DNA from: Candidatus Poribacteria bacterium
GTDB taxonomy: Bacteria > Poribacteria > WGA-4E > WGA-3G
Direction: 5' to 3'
Length of the DNA stretch: 64,000 nt
Assembly: GCA_963663765.2 (NCBI GenBank)
Contig: CAXXUA010000015.1
Coordinates: forward strand, 480,001-544,000
Shown here: piece by piece, positions 19,422 through 33,029 of the stretch
Position numbering within the stretch: position 1 is the first letter of the stretch
How the letters are laid out: the number at the start of each line of letters is the position of its first letter
Notes under the pieces: generated by a model
Told to the model about the DNA's origin: nothing
The model's input: the letters and a program-made list of their open reading frames with translations, nothing else
The model's database searches: none
Translations under genes and position numbers: made by a program

Positions 19422-22328
19422 TCATCTAACAGAACGTATGGTAGCGGTCCTGGCTTCTGAAGGGTTTTCTTCAAGCGATGTGTGAAATATTCCGCGTTCT
19501 TCGGTACCGATGTAAAGTTTATCTTGGCTGGCAGAAAGAGATATAACCTTATTAGGAATATTACTTAAGATTTGTTCCCAACTACCGCGAGGATCTAAAC
19601 TGTAAACACCCGTACCGCCAATACCATAAAATTTTGATCCGTTCATAGCAAATTTATCTATGACCACAGATGTTCCGTTATGATCCGTTATGATACGCCA
19701 ATGTTCCCCAGTTTGTGAAATCATCGCACCTTTATCAGTTGCAACACAGACCGTCGCCCCTAAAAATGTAATATCCTTAATTTGGGAATAATTTGATGGA
19801 ATATTTGGTGTAATGTCTCGCCAACTTTTTCCACCATCAATGGATTGGTATAACTTACCATCCCGTTTACCTACGTAGACAACTTCCACTGAGACTGCTA
19901 ATTTAAATCCTCTGTCCAAACCTTTATTAATAAATTTGTTCATATCTGTTAATCCCGTGTCTATCACTTCTGTGTTACCGAGTGTCCATTTGAAAAGTCG
20001 CCGCATGTATTCTATGTAGAAAGTTTCACCGCTCACAGCGATTGCTCCTAATTTCTGTTTTCTTTCAGTATTTGATAAATTTATGTTGTTCAAATCCTCA
20101 CTGTTTGTCCACAGTGTTGGGTCATAAATTCTATGAACCATTGAGAACACACCATCGTTAGTTCGTAAACGAAAAATGCGTAGTTCCTTTACTTGAGGTA
20201 TAATTCCGTAAAGAACGTTGTTGGCAATTATCAACTTTGAGTCAGTAAAATGATTATCAAGTTGATCTCCGATACTTGTTAGTTCTGGCGTAAACTCGCC
20301 ATAATCAATGCGAACTTCTTCCCACGAGTTTCCATTATCAGCAGATTTGTAAAATCCTGTTCCGGTATATACATAGAGCTTGTTATCAAAAACAACTATA
20401 TCTCGTACTTTGGTTTTCACCATACCATTTGTAAATGGATGCCATGAGTCACCACCATCAGTTGTGCGGAGAATACCTGAAGTACCCACCTTGTAAAAAG
20501 TATTATCGTTTACTGCTAAGACTGTAGAATAAGTTGATGGAAGTAAGTTTATATTAAGTCCGAGGTTTGTCCAAGTTTGACCGTTATCTTTCGATCTGAA
20601 CGTTGGAATACCTAATACTAAAAGCGTTTTATCAACAGCAGAAATCTTTGTAGGACCCATAAACAACGGTCCTGTGTTAACATCTATATCTTTAGGTGTT
20701 ATTTCGCGCCACGTAGAACCTAAGTCGACTGAATGGTAAATCTTGCGATACTTATTGTTGGGTGAGTTTGATTCCAAATATTCAGGACTAAGAAAATCTG
20801 AACCTGTCACGACATACAGATTGTTGTCAAAAACTGCCATTGAGTGAACAGTATTTTGTGGGTCCACTGACAATCGATCCCACAATCCAGAATTTAAGCG
20901 ATAAAGACCTTGGTTTGTTCCAATAAAAACAGAGTCGCTAATCTTAGCAACTGCAGAAATTTTCTTTCCTATCAACCCATTATTCAGAGGTATCCACTTT
21001 TTACCAGCATCAGTTGATCGAAAAACGCCTTCATTTCTCAAAGCAAGGTACATTAAAAAGTTTTCTTGTGTATTACCTCTTATTACTAATCCAACAGCAT
21101 CTCCGTTTGGTCGAGCACAGAATTTATTCCAAGTCTCGCCATCATCCTTTGAAGCCAATATCTCATTCGTATTGACAGAATAGATAACGCCACGATGTTC
21201 AGTTATGGGTGAGCGATAAGTGTTAATAGGTATATTTGTATTGATATTCATCCATGCAGTATTATCTTTCGTTAACCTATAAATACCTGTTCTTGAAACT
21301 GCGTGGATGTTATTATCTGAAGTCGCGAAGATATTAGATAAAGGAGACCCTTCTGGTCCATTTGCTTGTGTCCACTGAACAGCTGATGAATTAAGCGTGT
21401 TTTCTTGAACATTGGCTGCTAAGTCGGCATCAGAAGCAATTGTACCAGCCCCTTCATTTTTAATGTTGGTAACACTTCTTCCAATATTGTTTCGTACAGC
21501 TGGGTTCGAAACAATATCAATGTGTATAGGTGATTCCACTATTTCAACAGTCGGTTCAGAGAGGGCGTCAAAATTATACAGCATCTGAAAGTGCGCAATA
21601 TATTGGTTCATTGCTCCAAGTAATAACATAACCAACACAGCAGCTGTACCTAAAGCTGCCCACGGTAGCACAGGTTTTGCTACGGGTGGCGTGGGTTTTA
21701 TATCAGCAATTTTCTGCATGATATTCTCTGTTAGATCAGTAGATAATTGCACACCACCAAGATGTTCGGTGATTAAAAGTTCTCCTTCTGCTTTCAAACG
21801 GTTTCGCGCCCGTCGAATCTTGCTCTTAATTGTGTTCACGGATACACCTAAGGTTTTACCTATATCCTGTGCAGTCATTTCGCCGAGATAATAGAGGGAC
21901 ATTACTGTACGTTCACTCTCTGGTAATTTCTTCAACAACGCTTTGACGATTGTGCTGTTGTTCTCGGCAGCTTCTTTTTCCCGTTGTTCCGATTCATAAT
22001 GGTTATAAAAAGTCTTTTCTATTCCTTCCACTGCAGTATCCTCTATAGATTGTATTGGGGTTTTGTTCCTTTGAAGCCAATTGATACAAAGCCGTGTCGT
22101 GATAACATATATCCATCCATCAAATTGTTTTGGATTTTTAAGTGTAGATAGTTTTTTATATACTTGGATAAAGGTATCTTGGGTAATTTCTTCAGCAATG
22201 TGGTAGTCCCCAATCTTTTTCCAAGCGATCGCGTGAACTTTCTTTTGGTACTTTTGCACTAAAAGACTAAACGCTTCTTCTTCACCATTCAAAATTCTTT
22301 GAATTATTTGAACATTACTTTCTTCCAT
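19422..22328 (-). CDS. ECF sigma factor fused via a TM helix to an extracytoplasmic BNR/Asp-box beta-propeller
   Basis: Sigma region 2 (AEEITQDTFIQVY, FDGWIY), region 4 (LPESERTVMSLYY..IGKTLGVSVNTIKSKI), TM WAALGTAAVLVMLLLG, multiple S.D.G..W boxes. Confidence 0.92.
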   Translation of the reverse strand: MEESNVQIIQRILNGEEEAFSLLVQKYQKKVHAIAWKKIGDYHIAEEITQDTFIQVYKKLSTLKNPKQFDGWIYVITTRLCINWLQRNKTPIQSIEDTAVEGIEKTFYNHYESEQREKEAAENNSTIVKALLKKLPESERTVMSLYYLGEMTAQDIGKTLGVSVNTIKSKIRRARNRLKAEGELLITEHLGGVQLSTDLTENIMQKIADIKPTPPVAKPVLPWAALGTAAVLVMLLLGAMNQYIAHFQMLYNFDALSEPTVEIVESPIHIDIVSNPAVRNNIGRSVTNIKNEGAGTIASDADLAANVQENTLNSSAVQWTQANGPEGSPLSNIFATSDNNIHAVSRTGIYRLTKDNTAWMNINTNIPINTYRSPITEHRGVIYSVNTNEILASKDDGETWNKFCARPNGDAVGLVIRGNTQENFLMYLALRNEGVFRSTDAGKKWIPLNNGLIGKKISAVAKISDSVFIGTNQGLYRLNSGLWDRLSVDPQNTVHSMAVFDNNLYVVTGSDFLSPEYLESNSPNNKYRKIYHSVDLGSTWREITPKDIDVNTGPLFMGPTKISAVDKTLLVLGIPTFRSKDNGQTWTNLGLNINLLPSTYSTVLAVNDNTFYKVGTSGILRTTDGGDSWHPFTNGMVKTKVRDIVVFDNKLYVYTGTGFYKSADNGNSWEEVRIDYGEFTPELTSIGDQLDNHFTDSKLIIANNVLYGIIPQVKELRIFRLRTNDGVFSMVHRIYDPTLWTNSEDLNNINLSNTERKQKLGAIAVSGETFYIEYMRRLFKWTLGNTEVIDTGLTDMNKFINKGLDRGFKLAVSVEVVYVGKRDGKLYQSIDGGKSWRDITPNIPSNYSQIKDITFLGATVCVATDKGAMISQTGEHWRIITDHNGTSVVIDKFAMNGSKFYGIGGTGVYSLDPRGSWEQILSNIPNKVISLSASQDKLYIGTEERGIFHTSLEENPSEARTATIRSVR

Positions 22329-22584: not shown

Positions 22585-22691
22585 AAAAAGAAAAAAAGAT
22601 TATAAAAACATAAAAATAATATTTGTTTGTGGTGGCAAAATAATATAATAAAGCAATTGATACTATCAGTCAAGTTCAAAGGTTCAAAGAA

Positions 22692-22938
22692 CAGGGTTAT
22701 TCAGTTTCATAATTTTTGGATTTTTCCAAAAAGAACCCCGCGGTAGGAGCGACCTCCCGGTCGCGATTTTCTCAGAAAACGACTAAAATGCTAAAAACTA
22801 AATAACCCTGGTTCAAAGGCAGGGTTATTCAGTTTCATAATTTTTGGATTTTTCCAAAAAGAACCCCGCGGTAGGAGCGACCTCCCGGTCGCGATTTTCT
22901 CAGAAAACGACTAAAATGCCAAAAACTAAATAACCCTG
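22692..22938. mobile_element. Two tandem ISAs1-type MITEs
   Basis: CAGGGTTATTCAGTTT...AAACTAAATAACCCTG twice, separated and flanked by GTTCAAAGG-like duplications. Confidence 0.85.
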
Positions 22939-22945
22939 GTTCAAA

Positions 22946-23666
22946 GGGGTGTGTAAAGTTTTTGCACAGAGGTACTAACTTTTGTTCTCTTTAGTCCCGT
23001 AGGGACGCAATGTTTATAGAAAGACGTTATCACATCCCCTCTCTTTAGTTCCGTAGGAACGACATAGAAGGATAAACATATCGTCCCTACCAAATCAACG
23101 CCAAATGCGCCAAATCAACGGTATGAATGCCATTAAGGCATTCCCCGTATGGCATTTGTCGGGACTAAAAAGACGTGGGGATATGTATTTCTATAAACAT
23201 ATCGTCCCTACGGGACTGAAGAATATGGTTAATATTAACAATATTTCTTTATATTGACACCTAATGAAGTTTGAGAATCAAAATCGGCAGTTGAATTCGT
23301 AGGGGTTGGGTTCCCCAACCCGTTTGGTTATTAAGTTTGCGTAGATCGGGCGTGGCAACCACGCCCCATAGGCGTCAATTTAAGGATTTTCACCTCTTGT
23401 GGGAGGGGTTTTCAACCCCGATTTTTTAGTGCATTTCCGCTCAAATTGAGGTTGAAATCCCCTCCCACAAGAAAAATGACAACAATATTTTCTTAAATTG
23501 ACGCCTATGGGGTGTGGCAACCACGCCCCTACGAATATACAACTTGAACGTCAAAACTCATTATGGCTCTGTGTCCCGCAATCTCTCATTTAATCAGTTG
23601 GGGCGGGCACAGAGCCCCGCCCTACAATGAAGAATGAGTAGTTTGTGCAAAAACTTTACACACCCC
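22946..23666. mobile_element. Composite MITE (GGGGTGTGTAAAGTTTTTGCAC IRs) with nested REPs and a nested CATAGGCGTCAATTTAAG MITE (about 23367-23509)
   Basis: Perfect terminal IRs; TTCAAA on both sides; relative at about 55360-56503. Confidence 0.8.
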
Positions 23667-23847
23667 TTCAAAGAAATTGCTTTCATTACACCAGAAGAAT
23701 TCAATTCTCCAACAGTCGTAAAACTATTGGTCCAGTAGAACTTACTAACCCCAGAACTGTCAATTTTGGGATTATTATAGGTTTCAACCGTACTTTACCA
23801 ACATTCATTATGCTGAACACTTAACGATTCTGACAAATTTCACTTTT

Positions 23848-23875
23848 TGCACCCTTTCCACCTTTTCACTGTGTC
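23848..23875 (+). promoter_or_regulatory. Island motif upstream of the peptide operon
   Basis: TGCACCCTTTC-CACCTTTTCA-CTGTGTC; spacer unrelated to other copies but the same length. Confidence 0.72.
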
Positions 23876-24004
23876 ATGAATTATGGAAGCTGATTTACCT
23901 AATGACAAAACGTAAGTTTTGGACATTGTCAATAGGAAACTTCCATAGTATTAGCACAGTCATTAACGGACGAAATGACCGGAAAAGAAAGGAGGTGAAC
24001 CCTA

Positions 24005-24253
24005 ATGTATAAAAGATTACGCAATAAAATTAGCGAATTTATCAACTCTGAAGAAGGAAAAGTAGGAGTCAAAACTTCGTTATCATTTGGTTTGGTAGGC
24101 GGAGGATTACTGCTAATGCAAACAATGTTTCCTCTCGCTGCTAAGGCGGGATATGAGTGTTGGAGTAATGATAATTGTGCAGATGACGAAAAATGTGTTT
24201 TTTTTCAAGATGAGTATACAGGTGAATGGTACTCTGAGTGTGTTGATGTCTAA
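24005..24253 (+). CDS. Small precursor: Flp-pilin-like leader, hydrophobic segment, acidic 4-Cys C-terminal peptide
   Basis: Strong AAGGAGGTG RBS; FINSEEG leader; core GYECWSNDNCADDEKC...EC. Confidence 0.8.
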   Translation: MYKRLRNKISEFINSEEGKVGVKTSLSFGLVGGGLLLMQTMFPLAAKAGYECWSNDNCADDEKCVFFQDEYTGEWYSECVDV

Positions 24254-24272
24254 CACGTGATTAAATCATTTC

Positions 24273-24309
24273 AAATGGTTCCGCTGCTTTGAACAGTGGA
24301 ACCAATTTT
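24273..24309 (+). terminator. Stem-loop/terminator after the peptide gene
   Basis: TGGTTCCGCTG...CAGTGGAACCA stem followed by ATTTT. Confidence 0.6.
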
Positions 24310-24412
24310 ATTGTGTTAAATGAAAGCACGGAATTTGTTTATCAATGTAAAATACACAACGTTCTTAATGATAGGTATGTAATAAATATTCTGGAAACTA
24401 TGGTGAAATTTA

Positions 24413-24638
24413 GAGTTATTTACACATTCCGGATTTGTAGGAGGGAACTCCGATTCCCGATTACGAGTTATTTACACATTCCGGATTTGTAGGAGGGAAC
24501 TCCGATTCCCGATTACGAGTTATTTACACATTCCGGATTTGTAGGAGGGAACTCCGATTCCCGATTACGAGTTATTTACACATTCCGGATTTGTAGGAGG
24601 GAACTCCGATTCCCGATTACGAGTTATTTACTCCTACA
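24413..24638 (+). repeat. 4 x 52-bp tandem REP-like repeat (GTAGGAGGGAACTCCGATTCCCGA core)
   Basis: Identical units at 24413, 24465, 24517, 24569; closes with CTCCTAC. Confidence 0.92.
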
Positions 24639-24692
24639 GGTAGGGTGTACAATTATTTCAATAATTCACCATAAAAGGAGAAACGCTTCAAA

Positions 24693-25694
24693 ATGAAACG
24701 AACATTTGTGTATATTATATTAGGGACTATGTTATTCAACGGCCTATTATTTAGTAACGTACAAGCTGCTGAACATTCTGTTCTTTCCTTTCTTTCTAAC
24801 GAGAAAGGGGATTTTGACATATTCATCATAGATACTGACGGTAGAGTCCGTGAACGGATTGTAACGGATGCGATGAGAAAAAGTTCGCTCACATGTTCTC
24901 CTAAAGGTTATCTTTTTGCTTATTCATCAAATGAAAACGCTAATCTTGATATTTATAAAATGGATATTAGGAATAAAATATCAATACAGTTGACACTGCA
25001 TCCTGAGAGGGATCTATGGCCATCTTGGTCCCCTAATGGACAATGGATTGCCTTTGTCTCTGATCGGGAAGGAACTCAAGATATTTATAGAATGGATGCT
25101 GACGGTTCCAACTTAATAAGATTAACTGACCAAGGACACAACGGGATACCCTCTTGGTCTCCTGATAGTCGGTTGATCGCTTTTGATTCTGATAGGGAAG
25201 AAAATCATTCTATCTATAGCATGAATGCTGATGGTGGACAGTTAAAACAACTGACAGAGGATCTACCACTGGGACCAGGTTGTACGTGGTCACCAGATGG
25301 AAAACAGATTGCCTATGCTGCAGGAGATTTTAGCGCAGAAGGTGTTGATATTTTTACAATTGATGTCAATGAAAAAAATATCACCAAATTAACTAACATG
25401 GGGAGAGGAATCCGATCTGGTAATCCCGTATGGTCACCCGATGGTGACTTGATTGCCTATTCAATTGTGGAGGTCGAAGAGTGGCCAAACCCCGCTAACG
25501 GATTCAGACTTATTTTTGGCGACAGCACAATTTATCTCGTGGATAGCACAGGTAATGGTGATGAAAAACCGCTTAAAGAGACAACGGGTCTTTCCAACGA
25601 TCATGTGCCTGTCTGGATACCAAAAGGTTTTTTCTCAGTTTCACCAGATAAAACTAAACAGATAATCACCTGGGGAAAACTCAAACAACCATAA
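24693..25694 (+). CDS. TolB-like PD40 beta-propeller with WGKLK tail
   Basis: Several PSWSPDG..IAF.SDR repeats; signal peptide; C-terminus IITWGKLKQP. Confidence 0.9.
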   Translation: MKRTFVYIILGTMLFNGLLFSNVQAAEHSVLSFLSNEKGDFDIFIIDTDGRVRERIVTDAMRKSSLTCSPKGYLFAYSSNENANLDIYKMDIRNKISIQLTLHPERDLWPSWSPNGQWIAFVSDREGTQDIYRMDADGSNLIRLTDQGHNGIPSWSPDSRLIAFDSDREENHSIYSMNADGGQLKQLTEDLPLGPGCTWSPDGKQIAYAAGDFSAEGVDIFTIDVNEKNITKLTNMGRGIRSGNPVWSPDGDLIAYSIVEVEEWPNPANGFRLIFGDSTIYLVDSTGNGDEKPLKETTGLSNDHVPVWIPKGFFSVSPDKTKQIITWGKLKQP

Positions 25695-25734
25695 GTATTA
25701 GAAAACCAACCCAACTATAGTTTTAACATAAAAT

Positions 25735-26868
25735 ATGTCTTACTACGAATACTATCTCATTATTCTAACGCTTATTTTTTGTGGATACGCCTGTTACACA
25801 GATATAAAAACACAGAAAATTCGTAATATTTGTTCTTTCGGACTTCTTTATGCTGGAATACTCAGCCAACTTATGGCGTGGTACCTTGGCAAAACAACAC
25901 CGTTTAACATATCCGGGCTGTTTCTTGGAAGTGGAATCGCAGCATTTACTTTTTATTGGTTCGGTATTTTCTCACCAGGGGATTCCAAGCTCTTTTGGGG
26001 TCTCTGTATGATTTTTCCACCGCCACTTTTTGCGCTCTTGAATGGAACAGCAAGTTTTCCACCATTGATACTTGCACTTAATATCATCATTCCTTACACA
26101 ATAGGAGTCCTGGGATATCTACTGTTAAAATTATTTATGGGACACAATAAGTTGGAGTTCCTAAGTAATCTCCTTTTGAAAACCCTTCAAAAAGAGATAC
26201 TTTTACAGCGAATCTTCAACTTATTGCTTTTAATAGGTATAGGTTCTACGATTACTTATATTTCTAAATTGTTTGAATGGGAAATAAATAGACCCTTACA
26301 GATCGGTTTGGTCTTAATGACATTTATGTCAGCACGAAAATTGCTGTCACGTTTGCCCAAAACGCAGATCTATTATGCGGTAATTGGATTCGCTTGTATT
26401 TGGATTTCATTAAAAGCAAGCACATCAATAACAGGAGTTATCTACAGTATTGCTTTTTTCTTATTTTTATATTTTGTCATTTTCGTCATTGCTAAACAAT
26501 TGGTTCTTGGATTAGCAATGACGTTGGAGCGAAATATTGATATAGAAAACCTAAAAATCGGTATGATCCCAGCAGAGCAAATCATTCAGAAAACACTTCA
26601 AGACGGTGTTGCCTGTTATGAAAAACAACAAGCAACATTTTCAAGTGGAATAATGGATAACATTATTATTTCACCCAGTGCTACCGGTCTTAGTAAGGAA
26701 GAGATAGCAGAATTGAAAAAACTGGCAGATCAGGGGGAGTTCATAAAGTATAAAAACAAAATCAAAATCCAACCTGACATTTGCTTTGCACCAGTTATCA
26801 CTGTTGGGGCATTACTAACTATTCTCTGCCAAGGTCCGTTTTATCTCAAATTAGCACAAATATTTTAA
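25735..26868 (+). CDS. Peptidase A24 family (prepilin/preflagellin-type aspartic peptidase) with extended membrane C-terminus
   Basis: Catalytic Asp motifs YTDIKTQKIRN and SPGDSKL; LKIGMIPAE and C-terminal FAPVI resemble FlaK/PibD-like peptidases. Confidence 0.82.
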   Translation: MSYYEYYLIILTLIFCGYACYTDIKTQKIRNICSFGLLYAGILSQLMAWYLGKTTPFNISGLFLGSGIAAFTFYWFGIFSPGDSKLFWGLCMIFPPPLFALLNGTASFPPLILALNIIIPYTIGVLGYLLLKLFMGHNKLEFLSNLLLKTLQKEILLQRIFNLLLLIGIGSTITYISKLFEWEINRPLQIGLVLMTFMSARKLLSRLPKTQIYYAVIGFACIWISLKASTSITGVIYSIAFFLFLYFVIFVIAKQLVLGLAMTLERNIDIENLKIGMIPAEQIIQKTLQDGVACYEKQQATFSSGIMDNIIISPSATGLSKEEIAELKKLADQGEFIKYKNKIKIQPDICFAPVITVGALLTILCQGPFYLKLAQIF

Positions 26869-26914
26869 AGTTATAAAAGGGAGGGGATGGTGGATTATAC
26901 AATTAAATCTACAT

Positions 26915-27203
26915 TCTGAGTTGTAGGAGGGAACTCCGATTCCCGACTATCAAAGTTTTTGGTCGCGATCTGAGTTGTAGGAGGGAACTCCGATTCCCGA
27001 CTATCAAAGTTTTTGGTCGTGATCTGAGTTGTAGGAGGGAACTCCGATTCCCGACTATCAAAGTTTTTGGTCACGATCTGAGTTGTAGGAGGGAACTCCG
27101 ATTCCCGACTATCAAAGTTTTTGGTCGCGATCTGAGTTGTAGGAGGGAACTCCGATTCCCGACTATCAAAGGTTTTGGTCACGATTCAGAGATCGCTCCT
27201 ACA
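26915..27203 (+). repeat. 5 x 57-bp tandem REP-like repeat
   Basis: Unit CTGAGTTGTAGGAGGGAACTCCGATTCCCGACTATCAAAGTTTTTGGTCRYGAT. Confidence 0.92.
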
Positions 27204-27247
27204 ATTAAGATGTCCAATTATTTCCATATTTCACCATAATGTATATT

Positions 27248-29107
27248 ATGAAACGTACAATCTTTGTTCTAATCGTATTAACTATAGTTGTTACTTTACC
27301 GCCTTTTTACACACAATGGGTAGAATCTCAAAGGTTAAAACAGATACAAACAATTAAGCATCAAGCACGACCAATTTTGGGGCAACCGTTGCAACAGGTT
27401 TTATCTGAACTCAAAAGAAACGAACCGCCTTCAACGGTTATTCTATATACTGGTAACACAAAAAGCCATCTTGAACCGTGCGGGTGTTACCAAGAACAAG
27501 CTGGTGGATTATCAAGGCGGGCTGAAGTTATAAAACAAATTCGACAATGTGGATATCCAACAATTGTCGTTGATGCCGGAAACATATTCGACGGACAAGA
27601 GAAAATAGACGTACAACGCGCCAAAACGAATATGAAAGCATTAGCAGAAATGGACTACGCAACAGTCGCACTGAGTCACACCGATCTCACTTACGATGAC
27701 GATTATCTTATACAACAAAAGAATGTGGCTACGTTCCCATTCTTAGCACCCAATGAAACACAAACGGACTTCACAGAACCTTATGTTACCAAACAAGTTG
27801 GTCAACATACCATCGCATTTGTCGCAGGGAAGGCATCGAAACAAGCCGTATCTGAAGCGGACATTATTGTGGCGTTAGGCAATCCCCGAAAACTTGACAA
27901 TATTGACGTGATAATTCTACCAAACGAAGTAGAAGCATTGGGATCTGGTACCCAGACATTATATGTTGGTTCTAAAGTTGAAGGTAAGACATTAGGTGTA
28001 TTGGCACTGTGGTTAGATACAAATGGTGAAATTACAAATCATTACACAGCGCACATAGCATTGACTGGTGAAGTCGGTGAATCGGAATTAATCCGCAAAA
28101 TGTTAACCGAGTTTTACAAAAGCACAGCCGAAGAAAATAAAAAGTCTGGTCTACCACTCTTTGCCGAACAAGCATTAGAAAAACAGAACAGCGAGTATAT
28201 CTCAGCAAATACTTGCAAAGGTTGCCACGAACAAGAATATCTACAATGGTCAGCAACACGCCACGCTTTCGCTTATCAAACGCTTCTAAAAAAGGAACGT
28301 TACTTTGATCCGAATTGTGTCGCTTGCCATACAACAGGATTCGGTTATGCTACAGGTTACCAGATAGGGGATCAAGACTCAACGCTCAAAGGCGTGCAAT
28401 GTGAAACTTGCCACGGTCCAGGCAAACAACATGCAGGCAATCCCAAGAAAAGCAATATCCGCAGTGGTAAAGATATGTCACTTTGTCTACAGTGCCATGA
28501 TGCAGAACATTCACCAGGCTTTGCAGATGTGGTCACATTGCATACAAAAGATGTCGACCATAGCCGAGCACCGATGAACTTAGAAGAACTTTTAAAATCC
28601 CGAATAGAGCGAATGGGAAAACCAACACTTGAACTCTTTGTAATGAGTTACTGCCCTTTCGGTATCCAAGCAGAAGAAAAACTCATCCCGATTGTCAAGA
28701 AATTCGGTGACAAAATCGACTTCAAACTGCGGTTTATTGCACAAGAAAAGGATGAACTTTCTTCACAAGACATAACACCTTTTGTCAGTTTGCATGGTTA
28801 TCCAGAAGTAGCAGAAAATATGCGGCAGCTACTCATCGCACGAGAATATCCAGAGCAACTTTTAGTTTATCTCCTATGTCGTGGTAAAAAGTTGAACAAA
28901 AGTTGGGAAGATTGTGCAAAGAAACTCGGTATTGATGTGGAAAAAATAAATCGTTTGTTTAATACACCTGAGGCAGAGCAGCTGTTCAGGGAAAACATCA
29001 AACGTGCTGCTGAATTAGGTATAAAAGCATCACCAACGATTTTTGTAGATGGACAAAAATTCCCAACGAGTCAACTACTACGTGCAAGCGGAACACCTTG
29101 CCAGTAA
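27248..29107 (+). CDS. Fusion: 5'-nucleotidase/metallophosphoesterase-like N-domain, tetraheme cytochrome c (c554-like), thioredoxin-fold (DsbA/GILT-like) domain
   Basis: ILYTGN..SHLEPCGC....GG..RRA and VDAGN; CKGCH, CVACH, CETCH, CLQCH; LELFVMSYCPFG, SLHG..E..EN, GIKASPT. Confidence 0.85.
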   Translation: MKRTIFVLIVLTIVVTLPPFYTQWVESQRLKQIQTIKHQARPILGQPLQQVLSELKRNEPPSTVILYTGNTKSHLEPCGCYQEQAGGLSRRAEVIKQIRQCGYPTIVVDAGNIFDGQEKIDVQRAKTNMKALAEMDYATVALSHTDLTYDDDYLIQQKNVATFPFLAPNETQTDFTEPYVTKQVGQHTIAFVAGKASKQAVSEADIIVALGNPRKLDNIDVIILPNEVEALGSGTQTLYVGSKVEGKTLGVLALWLDTNGEITNHYTAHIALTGEVGESELIRKMLTEFYKSTAEENKKSGLPLFAEQALEKQNSEYISANTCKGCHEQEYLQWSATRHAFAYQTLLKKERYFDPNCVACHTTGFGYATGYQIGDQDSTLKGVQCETCHGPGKQHAGNPKKSNIRSGKDMSLCLQCHDAEHSPGFADVVTLHTKDVDHSRAPMNLEELLKSRIERMGKPTLELFVMSYCPFGIQAEEKLIPIVKKFGDKIDFKLRFIAQEKDELSSQDITPFVSLHGYPEVAENMRQLLIAREYPEQLLVYLLCRGKKLNKSWEDCAKKLGIDVEKINRLFNTPEAEQLFRENIKRAAELGIKASPTIFVDGQKFPTSQLLRASGTPCQ

Positions 29108-29312: not shown

Positions 29313-29675
29313 ATGATAAAAAGACCTTTGAAAATAATACGCGCCTATCAAGGTGAATTCTTACTCACAGTCATTGTTATGGTCACAATTTTCAGCTTTA
29401 TGACGCTCTTCGGACATGGGTTATCTGATGCGACTCTTTCAAACGAAGCCCCATCTGGTCTGATACCCATAATCAAGCCTGAGTGCATAACAAGACAGGA
29501 CTGTGAAAAACCATACATTATCTGTCCAACCCCAAGAATATCGTGTCCCCAAAAGACGGAAAAAATTGGTAACCATATTATTCCTGACCGGGGGATCATC
29601 AACCCCGCATTAACCGAACCTTGCCAACAAGACACATTAAGTTCGCAAGGAGACACACAAATAAGGAGTTATTGA
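29313..29675 (+). CDS. Small exported Cys-containing protein
   Basis: AAGGAG RBS; hydrophobic N-terminus; C-x5-C-x6-C-x6-C. Confidence 0.65.
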   Translation: MIKRPLKIIRAYQGEFLLTVIVMVTIFSFMTLFGHGLSDATLSNEAPSGLIPIIKPECITRQDCEKPYIICPTPRISCPQKTEKIGNHIIPDRGIINPALTEPCQQDTLSSQGDTQIRSY

Positions 29676-29676
29676 C

Positions 29677-30417
29677 ATGACAAAACAATTACACTGGGCA
29701 ATAGGCGGACTCGCGCTTCTTATAGTCGGTTTCGTGGCATTACAATTATATCTGTATGTTGACATAAAACGGTTCAAAGAGGAAATTGCCGGTCCAGAAC
29801 CCAAAACGGAAACAGAAACCGAACAACTCCCCGAACAGGTGCAAGTGCCTGAAGAGGATAACAGACCACCATCGCCAGATTACGGAGGTAAGTATGAGTG
29901 GCACGGGGATCATTGGCACAGAGTTGATCAACCACCCGTACAACCTGAACCAGATCCAAAAAGACATACCGGTCCTTTGACATACCACAAGGAACTTTTA
30001 GATAAGCATCCTGTTGAGGCACTGCGGCAACAGGCACGGGAATTAGGGCATTGGAGTGCTGAACATATTCCACCGTTTCCGCCAGATGACAATGAGGCAG
30101 CAGAATTCGCACGAGAACTGTATCTCTACAGATACCATAAGTGGACAGGACAGACCGACACCCCTGACTATCTGAAGGCTCTAGAGGCACAGAGTGTAAT
30201 ATTTCATGCACTTAAGGACCGGGAAAATAATTCCCCCTGGGAACTTGCCCGATACCACGATTTGATGAAATTAGTATGGCCCGATACGACGACTGACCCA
30301 TTTCCACACGTCCGTCATCCGACAACCTTCAAAGAGGGGATCAACCCATTAACAGCCCGTCCTTTACTCCCTTTTGAACTTGAGATGTCAAATCTAAAAA
30401 CAGAGGAAAACGACTGA
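29677..30417 (+). CDS. Membrane-anchored hypothetical protein with HGDHWH motif
   Basis: N-terminal TM, Pro-rich linker, WHGDHWH (His-triad-like); AAGGAG RBS. Confidence 0.8.
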   Translation: MTKQLHWAIGGLALLIVGFVALQLYLYVDIKRFKEEIAGPEPKTETETEQLPEQVQVPEEDNRPPSPDYGGKYEWHGDHWHRVDQPPVQPEPDPKRHTGPLTYHKELLDKHPVEALRQQARELGHWSAEHIPPFPPDDNEAAEFARELYLYRYHKWTGQTDTPDYLKALEAQSVIFHALKDRENNSPWELARYHDLMKLVWPDTTTDPFPHVRHPTTFKEGINPLTARPLLPFELEMSNLKTEEND

Positions 30418-30434
30418 TACACAAAGGAGATATC

Positions 30435-32072
30435 ATGCAAAGAATATTCACAGTCCTCACACTAACTTGTTTAACACTCACGTTTTTTGTGTCGTACGCC
30501 GCATACGCTGACTTTAACGGTGATGTTGATGTCGCAGAAAAGAACATAACAACCGACAAGGATGATGCTGATACACAATATAATGTTATGCAGAATGCCA
30601 ATATCCTATATCTTCTGGCGAAATCGGAATATGAGGCAAACGAAACAAAAATTAAAAGAGGTAAGAATGTCACCGCAGTCAAATTGCTGGCTGCAACCGT
30701 GTCTGTGTATGTAAGCGGTACTCTGACTGCACCCGTAGCCGTGAGTACCCTTGTAGATATGCTGGACTTGTCAGCGTCGATAGACGATTCAACAACGCTC
30801 CTTGACGCGTATGAAACCGCGATCTCCAGAAAATACAACGAGGTAGAACAGTTTGATATTCTCTCGATTGCGTACAATATCACGTATGACATCTATATTG
30901 AGGTGCTCGCTGAACATACAGGATGGACTGAATCCTATCTCTCCACGTACATTGAAAACGAATATAATCGTAGACAGGGGATACAACATAACGGTAGTAC
31001 TACTCCCAGTGATAAGCATGGGATCGAGGGGAAAAAAGAATGGGGCGAATATGATGATACATTCCCCTCATATCCTTGTGAAGGTCCCTGTACAGTGAGT
31101 TTCATGACACCAACGAGTGAACACGTAATACAATGTGGTTCCTCCGACGATCCTGGCACTAGTAAGGTTGGAGGATGCTGGTTTCGTTACCATTCTTGCG
31201 ATATCTATGAGAAAGCAATACACACACCAGGACGATGTGAGGGAAAGCTGTGGGATGAGGCATGGACTCGGGGACCTAATGGAGAATCTGTCCCATTTTG
31301 GAGGTTAATTGACTGCGGCGAGTGGACGCGAGTGTGTTTACTCCACGTGGGCGGTCATGCCTTCCCTCTTACTCCAGGTGACAACAACTTCAATATGTTT
31401 CACTTCCTTAATATCTATAACGATGATGGCACTATACAAACCTCTACACAGGCGTACAACAACCTAATCATAGAAGAGCAGACGATCCCATCAAATTCAA
31501 ATCAACTCTGTTCAGCCTGTAATGAAACTTATACATCCAGTGAGACAAGCGAGTGCTCAACTTGTTCAAGTGATGGAGACGAGTCAGCATCTACCGATGG
31601 TTCTTCCGATTGCGCCTCATGTACGAGTACGAACGAGTGTTCTGCGTGCTATACAACTGAGACATCCACTCTTGCAAGTGAAGCCAACACGGAGACTGTG
31701 TCCACAAGTACATCAACGCCTACCGCGCCCGGTTTATATCCTGTGGGGGCATCTTTAGCGACTGTGAACGGTCAAGAGATGCCTTCATTAGCACCGGGTG
31801 ACTCACATACTGCCAAGTTGATTACGAAATCAGGTGGATATGCAATAGTGCATTGGTATTTATTGCCACCTGGGGATAGTAGAACTTACGGTGATGAGTT
31901 GTTTCCGACAACTTACGCGCAAGGTTCTACTGTTGAGACAGAGGTAACCTTTAGTTTTACGTTTCCTTCTAGTGCCGTAGGTGTGTATAAACTCACAGCA
32001 TACATTTATCCGCATTCCAGCGCATCGGATCAGACATGTTATGAGTATAGTTACCTCATTTATGTTTCCTGA
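30435..32072 (+). CDS. Secreted multi-domain Cys-rich protein with C-terminal beta-sandwich-like domain
   Basis: Signal peptide, helical N-part, His/Cys motifs, four CxxC in a Ser/Thr-rich linker. Confidence 0.82.
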   Translation: MQRIFTVLTLTCLTLTFFVSYAAYADFNGDVDVAEKNITTDKDDADTQYNVMQNANILYLLAKSEYEANETKIKRGKNVTAVKLLAATVSVYVSGTLTAPVAVSTLVDMLDLSASIDDSTTLLDAYETAISRKYNEVEQFDILSIAYNITYDIYIEVLAEHTGWTESYLSTYIENEYNRRQGIQHNGSTTPSDKHGIEGKKEWGEYDDTFPSYPCEGPCTVSFMTPTSEHVIQCGSSDDPGTSKVGGCWFRYHSCDIYEKAIHTPGRCEGKLWDEAWTRGPNGESVPFWRLIDCGEWTRVCLLHVGGHAFPLTPGDNNFNMFHFLNIYNDDGTIQTSTQAYNNLIIEEQTIPSNSNQLCSACNETYTSSETSECSTCSSDGDESASTDGSSDCASCTSTNECSACYTTETSTLASEANTETVSTSTSTPTAPGLYPVGASLATVNGQEMPSLAPGDSHTAKLITKSGGYAIVHWYLLPPGDSRTYGDELFPTTYAQGSTVETEVTFSFTFPSSAVGVYKLTAYIYPHSSASDQTCYEYSYLIYVS

Positions 32073-32416: not shown

Positions 32417-32483
32417 TTTAATATATGAAGTGTGACTCTATTTCACAAACATATATTTGAATATTCAACAAACAAAAAATCAA

Positions 32484-33029
32484 ATGAATAATCAACACAA
32501 AGTATTTATCAACTTCTGCCATACTGAAGATCGGCACTATCAGGAACGATTTGAAGAATTGTTTTTAGATGTCTACAGCATCATAGTGTCAAGGTCTATC
32601 AAAATAGGAGACTTTGATAGTACGACATTCTCAACAGAACGCATTCGTCAGCACATACGGGAAAAATATCTCCGAGATTCCACAGTGACTGTTGTGTTGA
32701 TCGGTGCTAATACATGGCATCAGAAATCTGTAGACTGGGGGATCAGCTCCAGTATACGTCAAACAGAATACAACACCCGCTCTGGACTTTTAGGGATTTT
32801 GCTACCGACATATCCAAGACCCCCCGGTAAACACTACGATCCCCGCACAATCCCGCCAAGACTATACGATAACGTCGCATGTGGATTTTCCAAAATCTAC
32901 AGTTGGAACGAGGAACCTTATACCGTCCTGTCCTGGATACATTATGCTCACATACGGAGAACAGAGATACTGCCTAACAACTCACGTGCTCCGTTAACAA
33001 ATAACTTGTCGGGCGAAAGGTGGAACTAA
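32484..33029 (+). CDS. Thoeris ThsB-like TIR domain protein (DUF1863/MTH538-like), catalytic Glu replaced by Gly
   Basis: HKVFINF, IREKYLRDSTVTVVLIG..TW..K.VDWGI..S, GLLGILLP, PPRLYDN. Confidence 0.85.
   Translation: MNNQHKVFINFCHTEDRHYQERFEELFLDVYSIIVSRSIKIGDFDSTTFSTERIRQHIREKYLRDSTVTVVLIGANTWHQKSVDWGISSSIRQTEYNTRSGLLGILLPTYPRPPGKHYDPRTIPPRLYDNVACGFSKIYSWNEEPYTVLSWIHYAHIRRTEILPNNSRAPLTNNLSGERWN

Follow-up and report, generated by a model that had tools for sequence, protein, structure and literature searches.

A Cys-rich peptide, a beta-propeller and a GxGD-type peptidase in a Poribacterial genome: a candidate peptide-maturation locus with an Hxs-type leader

What a bacterium makes of a short Cys-rich precursor with a leader at first taken for Flp-like, encoded near a prepilin-type peptidase, is the question raised by one gene cluster of a sponge symbiont of the Candidatus Poribacteria. 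The cluster lies in a stretch of 64,000 nt (hereafter the window) of a genome of 6.35 Mb that is 97.8% complete, and it comprises an 82-residue open reading frame (ORF), a TolB-like beta-propeller, a putative A24 membrane peptidase and a fusion protein with four heme-binding motifs. A first-pass annotation of this DNA had proposed either a pathway akin to those for peptides made on the ribosome and modified after translation (RiPPs) or a minimal redox-modified pilin. The small ORF, the hairpin behind it, the propeller, the peptidase and the fusion are all present where that annotation had placed them (Table 1). Its expectation that the four genes keep together beyond this genome was also borne out, since the order of a sigma factor gene (sigma-BNR, see below), peptide, propeller, peptidase and fusion is repeated in five complete loci and one partial (truncated) locus of the same genus, across which the orthologous peptides are 66-73% identical. 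The gene set is real, conserved and undescribed in the literature searched. Our reading, for which our confidence is slightly better than even, is that the product is a disulfide-rich peptide which undergoes processing and export and is bound by its cognate PD40 propeller; the cleavages, the oxidation, the localisation and the biological role are inferred.

The precursor, its leader and its peptidase

The leader of the precursor reads ..KISEFINSEEG, where the Gly is residue 18 and position +5 holds Lys, not Glu. A hydrophobic stretch ending in AAKA follows, and the last 34 residues form an acidic core (C-x5-C-x5-C-x14-C) that starts with GYECWSNDNC... The lack of the pilin Glu at +5, the AAKA end and the 34-residue core with this Cys spacing had all been pointed out before and are confirmed in the sequence; a Pfam search with the small ORF matched no family.

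Relatives were collected by scanning species-representative genomes with an alignment of the peptidase, which gave 59 loci. The titles name Poribacteria in 58 of them and an 'uncultured bacterium' in the remaining one, but with patterns as specific as those used in the scan this is no proof of restriction to the phylum. With a profile made from eight peptides, 131 leader-bearing ORFs were found in the 59 loci (118 distinct after start trimming), peptides being present in 54 of the loci. The check proposed by the first-pass annotation, for small ORFs with an F..SEEG-type leader and variable Cys cores near homologous peptidases, is therefore positive. At least 457 database proteins match the peptide profile at E<=1e-3, and among the 120 matches listed the sole source name is 'hypothetical protein [Candidatus Poribacteria bacterium]'. 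Across 94 family peptides, M1, E16, G18 and two Cys are invariant, and in the seven orthologues residues 1-48 are 83% identical while the core is 54% identical. Among 117 peptides, A-x-A directly precedes the core in 73, the span from the Gly to the A-x-A is 30-31 residues in 89, and the core (median length 35 residues) holds four or six Cys in 94 and an odd number in 19; its net charge is negative in 106, with a median of -5. The window peptide falls in a 6-Cys 'W-x-S-x-C' subtype that is often encoded next to sigma-BNR genes. As judged from these sequences, the conserved A-x-A in front of the core suggests that signal peptidase is what releases it.

The leader had been described as Flp-like, a description that did not hold. 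At E<=10, none of the 94 peptides matches Flp_Fap (PF04964), and the whole genome gave no Flp hit under conditions that detected Flp in the control genome of Caulobacter; since the window peptide also has K at +5 and is without the G/xxxxEY motif, an identity as a Flp/Tad pilin was rejected. The similarity lies elsewhere. The NCBIfam model HxsA3 gives a weak N-terminal match in 59 of the 94 Poribacterial peptides, and in the window peptide it covers residues 2-50 only, with 15.9 bits against a cut-off of 65; alignment of the Poribacterial with the Hxs-type leader profiles by hhalign gives a probability of 98.3% (E 2e-14, 45 columns). The E and G of the E-x-G motif are likewise invariant in 24 archaeal and bacterial Hxs-type leaders, and both leader sets have a [VA]-x-A site after the hydrophobic stretch. 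On these profile comparisons, the leader of the peptide is homologous to the N-terminus of the HxsA3/HxsA4 His-Xaa-Ser precursors and not derived from pilins. The window core holds no His-Xaa-Ser repeats, and when archaeal and Poribacterial queries were compared by blastp with all open frames of the genome, HxsD found no match and HxsB only generic radical SAM proteins of 20-25% identity.

The 377-residue membrane protein encoded two genes downstream matches Arc_PepC (PF06819) with 33.2 bits against a cut-off of 23.4, and no NCBIfam family matches it. The two candidate catalytic Asp that the first-pass annotation had noted, D23 (YTD) and D83 (SPGDSKL), are in place, and both are invariant across 43 close homologues as well as 32 distant ones. 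An AlphaFold model of the protein (predicted local distance difference test, pLDDT, 71.6) was compared by VIA-align with 48,161 chains. The best match was FlaK (3S0X_B; Z 12.8, root-mean-square deviation 3.8 Å over 172 of 186 residues, the next match reaching 6.9), a value to be read with the caution that in this tool a Z under about 13 can represent a common arrangement for helical proteins. Foldseek returned nothing from the PDB at E<=0.001 for the same model, and the sequence profile gave only chance hits there. By its predicted fold, the protein would be a FlaK-like GxGD membrane aspartyl peptidase, and for a putative class III-type cut after the Gly the evidence is comparative, namely the invariant E-x-G and the conserved adjacency of the two genes.

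The same pairing of leader and peptidase recurs at a distance. An exhaustive profile search with the peptidase reached 1404 representatives at E<=1e-3, many of equal length and architecture; the names carried by distant homologues (two of 17 cluster members) are 'Flp pilus assembly protein protease CpaA' and 'hypothetical protein'. The 80 loci of distant homologues are mostly from DPANN archaea, and the bacteria among them are Anaerolineales, Desulfobacteraceae, Cytophagia, four candidate-phyla-radiation bacteria and one more Poribacterium. In these loci the usual order is peptidase, HxsD-like protein, HxsB and precursor, where HxsB scores 434 bits on TIGR03978 (cut-off 370), the HxsD-like protein stays under its family cut-off (E 7e-11), and the precursor matches both HxsA3 and HxsA4 at E 1e-12, under the cut-offs of both. 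The peptidase is present in 77 of the 80 loci, together with HxsB and the HxsD-like protein in 46, and a precursor in which the same leader is followed by His-Xaa-Ser repeats occurs in 35. One Poribacterial locus (L103) unites HxsD, HxsB, the peptidase and Cys-rich peptides. Among 176 Poribacteria genomes, 70 have the peptidase (threshold E<=1e-20), in up to nine copies per genome, 79 have the peptides, and 65 have both, by a tally of the listed genome rows.

Could the product then be a minimal pilin, in which the peptidase cuts a class III signal and residues 19-82 assemble into a short fibre, Flp-like or of archaeal type, whose head is held by disulfide bonds? The invariant Gly before the hydrophobic segment, the FlaK match of the peptidase model, the CpaA name given to one homologue by its source and the methyltransferase genes directly upstream of the peptidase in related loci (20 genes in 19 loci) all speak for it. 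Yet neither the Flp_Fap search of the 94 peptides nor the genome search gave a Flp hit, and position +5 holds K or R, not E. Among the gene clusters that recur in the 139 related loci (59 + 80), none is an assembly ATPase, platform or secretin gene; the unclustered ORFs of these loci were left unannotated. The absence of Tad or type IV pilus ATPase, platform and secretin genes noted in the first-pass annotation holds for the window, and the single set of such type II secretion/type IV pilus genes in this genome is on another contig (C4). These results also set the small ORF apart from an ordinary Flp pilin of a Tad locus. The conserved A-x-A before the core, which implies release from the hydrophobic segment, argues against the minimal redox-modified pilin that had been offered as an alternative, and the core is predicted to sit on the propeller (see below). 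We hold a pilin to be very improbable.

A simpler possibility is a plain Sec-secreted Cys-rich protein, whose first 48 residues would be a signal peptide removed by a single cut of signal peptidase I, the A24-like protein clearing the remnant in the manner of a signal peptide peptidase or acting elsewhere. The A-x-A, the h-region and the lysines do make a canonical signal peptide, peptides persist in near-complete genomes that have no peptidase, and signal-peptide RiPPs such as bufferins exist, according to the available part of the literature on them. Plain secretion gives, however, no reason for an E-x-G that is invariant in 94 + 24 sequences with unrelated cores, nor for the fact that, in DPANN archaea and Poribacteria alike, leaders of this type co-occur with peptidases of this family, and we consider it unlikely.

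The propeller, the redox fusion and the proposed route

The propeller encoded next to the peptide carries a signal peptide of its own. It scores 156.8 bits on the TolB equivalog TIGR02800, under the cut-off of 343, and no tol/pal genes are nearby, so that it was rejected as a TolB orthologue. A complex of its residues 27-333 with core residues 47-82 of the precursor was predicted next to three controls. The score was 0.74 (three runs of 0.77, 0.74 and 0.73) against 0.01 for the best of the three controls, the pLDDT of the partner was at least 80 and the contacts agreed between runs by at least 85%. Of 80 solved complexes 58 had come up to the mark for this score, and of 110 mismatched pairs 2 had done so; with our own alignments in use, these counts apply only roughly here. 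All blades contribute predicted contacts, which would put the core on the top face of the propeller. Variation follows the same surface: across 54 paralogues the 27 interface positions have an entropy of 2.83 bits against 1.96 for the rest of the propeller (p 2e-6), and among eight orthologues 7 of 27 interface positions are invariant, compared with 137 of 268 others. On this modelled complex, the propeller is probably the cognate binding partner of the peptide core and not an enzyme.

The propeller ends in a tag of the ..TWGKLKQP type (window 25650-25694), found at the end of 93 of the 4630 open frames of at least 150 residues in the genome. Of the 104 occurrences of the motif ..V-x-P-x-x-K-L-x-T-T-W-G-x-[LIV]-K-x-x, 93 lie within the last 22 residues. 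This suggests a shared sorting route, and the motif has the look of a sorting signal, not described before, that is borne by secreted proteins of the lectin-like and propeller kinds.

A binding partner encoded next to a secreted Cys-rich peptide would also be expected if the peptide were a toxin against competitors and the propeller a periplasmic immunity protein that sequesters it. Such a bacteriocin-immunity arrangement is in line with the tandem hypervariable peptide-propeller pairs of relatives (up to six in a 21-kb locus), with the predicted binding and the variable interface, and with the patchy distribution and varying copy number across the 176 genomes. It sits badly with the strongly acidic cores, whose charge is unusual for membrane-active bacteriocins, with the lack of any dedicated exporter that recurs in related loci, with an export-type C-terminal tag that the propeller has in common with the other tagged frames, and with the single pair in this genome. 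We judge it improbable.

The fusion protein, which follows the peptidase in 44 of the 59 loci, had been annotated as a tetraheme/thioredoxin-fold protein. Its four CxxCH motifs and DsbA-like fold bear this out, but a third domain had been missed at the N-terminus. This domain is UshA-like, of the '(seleno)protein PCGU' type (NF041198, 212.9 bits against a cut-off of 275), and its alignment does not keep the metal-binding residues of 5'-nucleotidases; the c554-like tetraheme and DsbA-like domains follow it. In 41 homologues, C81 and C83 (PCGC), the four CxxCH motifs and C472 are invariant. The C-terminal domain matches DSBA (E 6.7e-9) and, weakly, 3GN3 and 3BCI. As a DsbA-type CxxC oxidoreductase it was rejected, the fold matching but the motif reading CPFG, with a single Cys where DsbA has CxxC. 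That Cys together with PCGC is, by motif, compatible with more than one chemistry. Neither DsbB nor VKOR was found in this 97.8%-complete genome, which, together with the position of the fusion next to the peptidase in most loci, makes a dedicated heme-linked catalyst for the disulfides of the peptide plausible.

Put together, the hydrophobic segment of the precursor would insert in the inner membrane with the N-terminus inside, and its leader would be clipped off on the cytoplasmic side by the FlaK-like GxGD peptidase, G18 being the most likely place of the cut. The acidic 34-residue core would cross the membrane and be freed by signal peptidase I after AKA; two disulfides would form, aided by the membrane-anchored UshA-like/tetraheme/DsbA-like fusion, and the core would come to sit on its cognate PD40 propeller, at the top face. 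A complex of peptide and propeller, in the envelope or outside the cell, would be the end product. Relatives have, in addition, two glycosyltransferases with a RiPP recognition element (RRE), sugar-nucleotide genes, a methyltransferase and many tandem peptide-propeller pairs. The hypervariability of the pairs argues that the biological role is probably conflict, defence or host interaction.

Several observations weigh against this route and have to be set beside it. With signal peptidase to free the core, it is hard to see what a cut at G18 would be needed for, and the KVGVK that follows G18 is charged, a departure from what known class III signal peptidases cut. The peptidase scores 22 bits on Peptidase_A24 (PF01478), under the cut-off of 26.5, and its GxGD motif reads SPGD, with Ser for the first Gly. 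Since the 59 and the 80 loci were both found through the peptidase, the co-occurrence counts taken from them are biased, and 14 of the 79 peptide-positive Poribacteria genomes are without the peptidase at E<=1e-20. When five near-complete genomes of this group were rechecked, four had no peptidase at E<=0.01 and one had a 27-residue remnant, so either the peptidase is not always needed or those loci are decaying; several peptide matches in the peptidase-less genomes carry stops. The favourable score of the complex may partly reflect memory of solved TolB-peptide complexes, and the top-face loops of propellers are often variable in general. The thioredoxin fold of the fusion has its one Cys in CPFG and no second Cys in any of the 41 sequences. 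Finally, a terminator-like hairpin and tandem repeats separate the genes of the cluster.

The Poribacterial family and the layout of the locus

The window is a minimal, glycosyltransferase-less form of a larger Poribacterial family. In the 59 loci, the peptidase is present in 56, and each peptide gene is typically followed by a propeller gene, in up to six pairs within 21 kb. PD40 propellers amount to 94 genes in 34 loci, and Kelch propellers take their place in 11. Paired glycosyltransferases occur in 43 of the 59 loci (48 adjacent pairs), and phosphohexomutases (23 loci), nucleotidyltransferases (12) and GHMP kinases (9) are found as well. In each pair, the first glycosyltransferase has the GT4 E-x7-E motif intact and gives a strong score, whereas the second scores weakly and lacks the first Glu. 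A profile of their 100 N-terminal residues matches the RRE of CteB (PDB 5WGG, residues 4-84) at E 1.1e-15, which argues that the family is leader-guided in the RiPP sense; the Pfam PqqD model itself matches weakly, in 7 of 30 and 2 of 31 of these proteins. A comparison of this RRE with the N-terminus of HxsB gave no similarity (probability 0.2%), so an origin of the RRE from HxsB is not shown.

Neither the window nor the rest of the genome encodes an RRE-glycosyltransferase. Of the RiPP-like pathway that the first-pass annotation had foreseen, the conserved leader and the variable core stand, but an RRE-bearing modifying enzyme was not found in the genome; with no peptide-modifying enzyme that has a recognition domain, 'RiPP-like' means here proteolysis and disulfides only. 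The genome holds one peptide of the family and one such peptidase, and a separate canonical A24 peptidase is encoded elsewhere, on another contig.

Table 1. Features of the peptide locus, with positions in the 64,000-nt window
Feature	Position	Strand	Basis or remark
ECF-type sigma factor fused via one membrane segment to a BNR/sortilin-like propeller	19422..22328	-	Pfam Sigma70_r2/r4 and Sortilin-Vps10/BNR; divergent neighbour, candidate regulator
Upstream block, candidate promoter	23844..23889	+	kept in 7/7 orthologous upstream regions
Ribosome-binding site AGGAGGTG	23990..23997	+	7 nt before the ATG of the 82-aa ORF
Precursor ORF, 82 aa	24005..24253	+	ORF table and sequence
Precursor residues 1-18, putative cytoplasmic leader ending E16-x-G18	24005..24058	+	E16 and G18 invariant in 94 peptides
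Precursor residues 19-48: KVGVK, hydrophobic segment, AKA (signal-peptidase-like site)	24059..24148	+	
Precursor residues 49-82 and stop, acidic 4-Cys core	24149..24253	+	
Stem-loop after the precursor gene	24276..24304	+	11-bp stem
Secreted PD40 (TolB-like) beta-propeller with C-terminal ..ITWGKLKQP tag	24693..25694	+	Pfam PD40 E 1.3e-30
Archaeal-type A24/GxGD membrane aspartyl peptidase (predicted), C-terminal Arc_PepC domain, 377 aa	25735..26868	+	Arc_PepC match, D23/D83
Membrane-anchored fusion, 622 aa: UshA-like (PCGC), tetraheme c554-like, DsbA-like fold (CPFG)	27239..29107	+	family searches and alignment

The divergent neighbour of the peptide gene encodes an extracytoplasmic function (ECF)-type sigma factor joined to a BNR propeller (sigma-BNR), present in 32 of the 59 loci. 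This invites a signalling explanation, in which the secreted peptide would be sensed by the BNR propeller of the adjacent membrane-bound sigma factor in an autoinduction loop. Its frequent place beside the 6-Cys 'W-x-S-x-C' subtype to which the window peptide belongs, and the upstream block kept in seven orthologues, are what one would expect of such a loop. On the other hand, about 30 further open frames of the genome match sigma-BNR at E<=1e-10, the five closest along the full length of sigma-BNR, against one peptide, so that sigma-BNR is tied to the cluster by position only. The complex test used the PD40 propeller, not the BNR domain, and the upstream motif is lacking in most of the wider family. 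We think signalling of this kind quite improbable, although a little less so than a pilin.

Regarding the non-coding DNA, the promoter proposed before the small ORF fared unevenly. A scan for sigma-70 promoters found 26 sites where 21.5 +/- 4.5 were expected from shuffles, which is chance level, but the block at 23844-23889 is kept upstream of all seven orthologous peptides, and AAAGGAGGTGA is identical upstream of the peptide gene in 7/7 orthologues. In the wider family the 23844-23889 motif was found upstream of only 9 of 118 peptides, and a k-mer search of the upstream regions for a family-wide promoter motif found the ribosome-binding region alone in common. The strong ribosome-binding site annotated before the ORF is indeed present as AGGAGGTG, and so is the stem-loop after it, which has a z of -3.5 and the same stem in 6/6 orthologous loci. 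In one orthologue the loop of this hairpin is inverted, with the stem unchanged (UUAGAGG vs CCUCUAA; L027 4143-4232 compared with L025 and L026), which resembles a flip between stem arms.

The genes are not tightly packed: one tandem array (52 bp x4.2, 24413-24631) fills the gap between peptide and propeller, and another (54 bp x5, 26915-27185) that between peptidase and fusion. Both arrays, perfect or near-perfect, have the 19-base core GGAGGGAACTCCGATTCCC in common, which occurs 238 times at 110 sites of the genome, in arrays of up to 23 copies and often 40 bp apart. A 128-bp x2.1 repeat and several GC-rich hairpin elements (22681-23640) fill the 1.7-kb gap that separates the peptide gene from the sigma gene, and 17 terminator-like sites against 4.8 expected were counted in the region scanned. 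Rfam gave no match in the whole window at the gathering threshold.

PADLOC defence models matched none of the four window proteins and, in the proteins of related loci, gave only generic methyltransferase and radical SAM matches. Downstream of the fusion gene, three ORFs of 120, 246 and 545 residues (29313-32072) that match no family form a cassette, of which several partial or whole copies lie on contigs C3, C5, C6, C11 and C15; one of the copies on C6 carries an 85-residue piece of the C-terminus of the fusion, 88% identical. Further on, at 32457-33029 on the + strand, a 190-residue ORF has a TIR-like domain of the Thoeris ThsB type (PF08937, E 2.5e-14), a defence-type gene 3.4 kb downstream of the cluster.

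The system among its known counterparts

In the literature searched on Cys-rich peptides of Poribacteria, nothing describes this gene set (supplements and most subscription journals lay outside the search), and the search on prepilin peptidases and RiPPs gave co-occurrences that are incidental by title and abstract. A leader-peptidase role for A24 peptidases was not found in the RiPP literature searched, the search on Poribacteria with glycosyltransferases and PqqD returned nothing, and HxsA2, HxsA3 and HxsA4 had no mention in the literature searched.

If the proposed route is correct, the GxGD prepilin-type protease gains a second job, the removal of leaders from exported ribosomal peptides, besides the processing of pilins and archaellins. 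The leader-peptidase pairs are seen in two domains of life, in DPANN archaea and in several bacterial groups that include the Poribacteria. HXS, whose action against phages has been proven by experiment, would also be tied to a family of sponge symbionts that is large and unannotated. Tandem co-varying peptide-propeller pairs would amount to a natural library in which small disulfide-rich binders come with their receptors, something that protein engineering could use as much as the study of symbiosis and of phage defence. The window would hold the simplest version of the system, in which peptide, propeller, peptidase and redox protein are each present once. We also entertain, as a tentative and rather doubtful extension, that an archaeal-type branch of the anti-phage HXS system became a diversifying envelope system of the Poribacteria. 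In it, a GxGD protease dedicated to leader removal would tie maturation in the cytoplasm to export, and each hypervariable, disulfide-knotted peptide would lock onto a propeller that diversifies with it, giving a complex at the surface or in the periplasm that blocks phages or handles the sponge host.

Among the known counterparts, the FlaK/PibD/TadV class III signal peptidases (MEROPS A24; 3S0X) resemble the window peptidase in the FlaK fold match, the two Asp, the Arc_PepC domain and the G at the presumed -1 position of the substrate. They differ in that the window peptidase stays under the A24 cut-off and reads SPGD, has no pilus or archaellum genes nearby, and acts on a presumed substrate that is charged after the G and has a second site of the signal-peptidase type.

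Of the RRE-dependent systems, SCIFF/CteB is echoed in the two GT4 proteins of relatives, which carry a CteB-like RRE, and in the conserved leader and Cys-rich variable core; in the Poribacterial family, by contrast, the fusion partner of the RRE is GT4 rather than a radical SAM or GT2 enzyme, a C39 exporter is lacking, and the window genome has no RRE protein. Glycocins such as sublancin combine glycosylation with two disulfides. TolB, for its part, binds peptide ligands, namely Pal and the TolB box of colicins, and the PD40 propeller of the window is likewise predicted to hold a small ligand on its face; it is no orthologue of TolB, however, lies outside any Tol-Pal context and belongs to the hypervariable family of propeller paralogues (94 in 34 loci).

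Bufferins (PMC11626156) and lipoprotein-pathway RiPPs (PMC13056109) share with our peptide the use of a general secretion signal as leader and Cys-containing cores that act in the periplasm. As described in the available parts of these reports, they are modified by MNIO enzymes and have no A24 peptidase, propeller partner or hypervariable tandem pairs.

Hxs systems are further counterparts. According to its published description (PMC13128918), the HXS system HxsABCD of Pseudomonadota, the phylum in which 99.7% of such systems are reported, blocks the entry of phage DNA by means of a radical SAM-matured, cleaved, periplasmic HxsA; neither 'peptidase' nor 'protease' occurs in the text of the paper, and archaea are not mentioned. 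Canonical HXS is like the proposed system in that its precursor starts with a signal-like region and, once matured and cleaved, reaches the periplasm as its site of action, but it employs two radical SAM enzymes plus HxsD, and its effector has a peptidoglycan-binding domain (PMC13128918). In the HxsA3/HxsA4-type cassettes (NF038309, NF038313, TIGR03978, TIGR03976), the module of leader, hydrophobic segment and A-x-A is homologous to that of the window precursor, and so is the neighbouring peptidase. The window core differs from theirs in having no His-Xaa-Ser repeats, and its genome in having no detected HxsB or HxsD, whereas the propeller partner and the heme fusion are additions on the side of the window.

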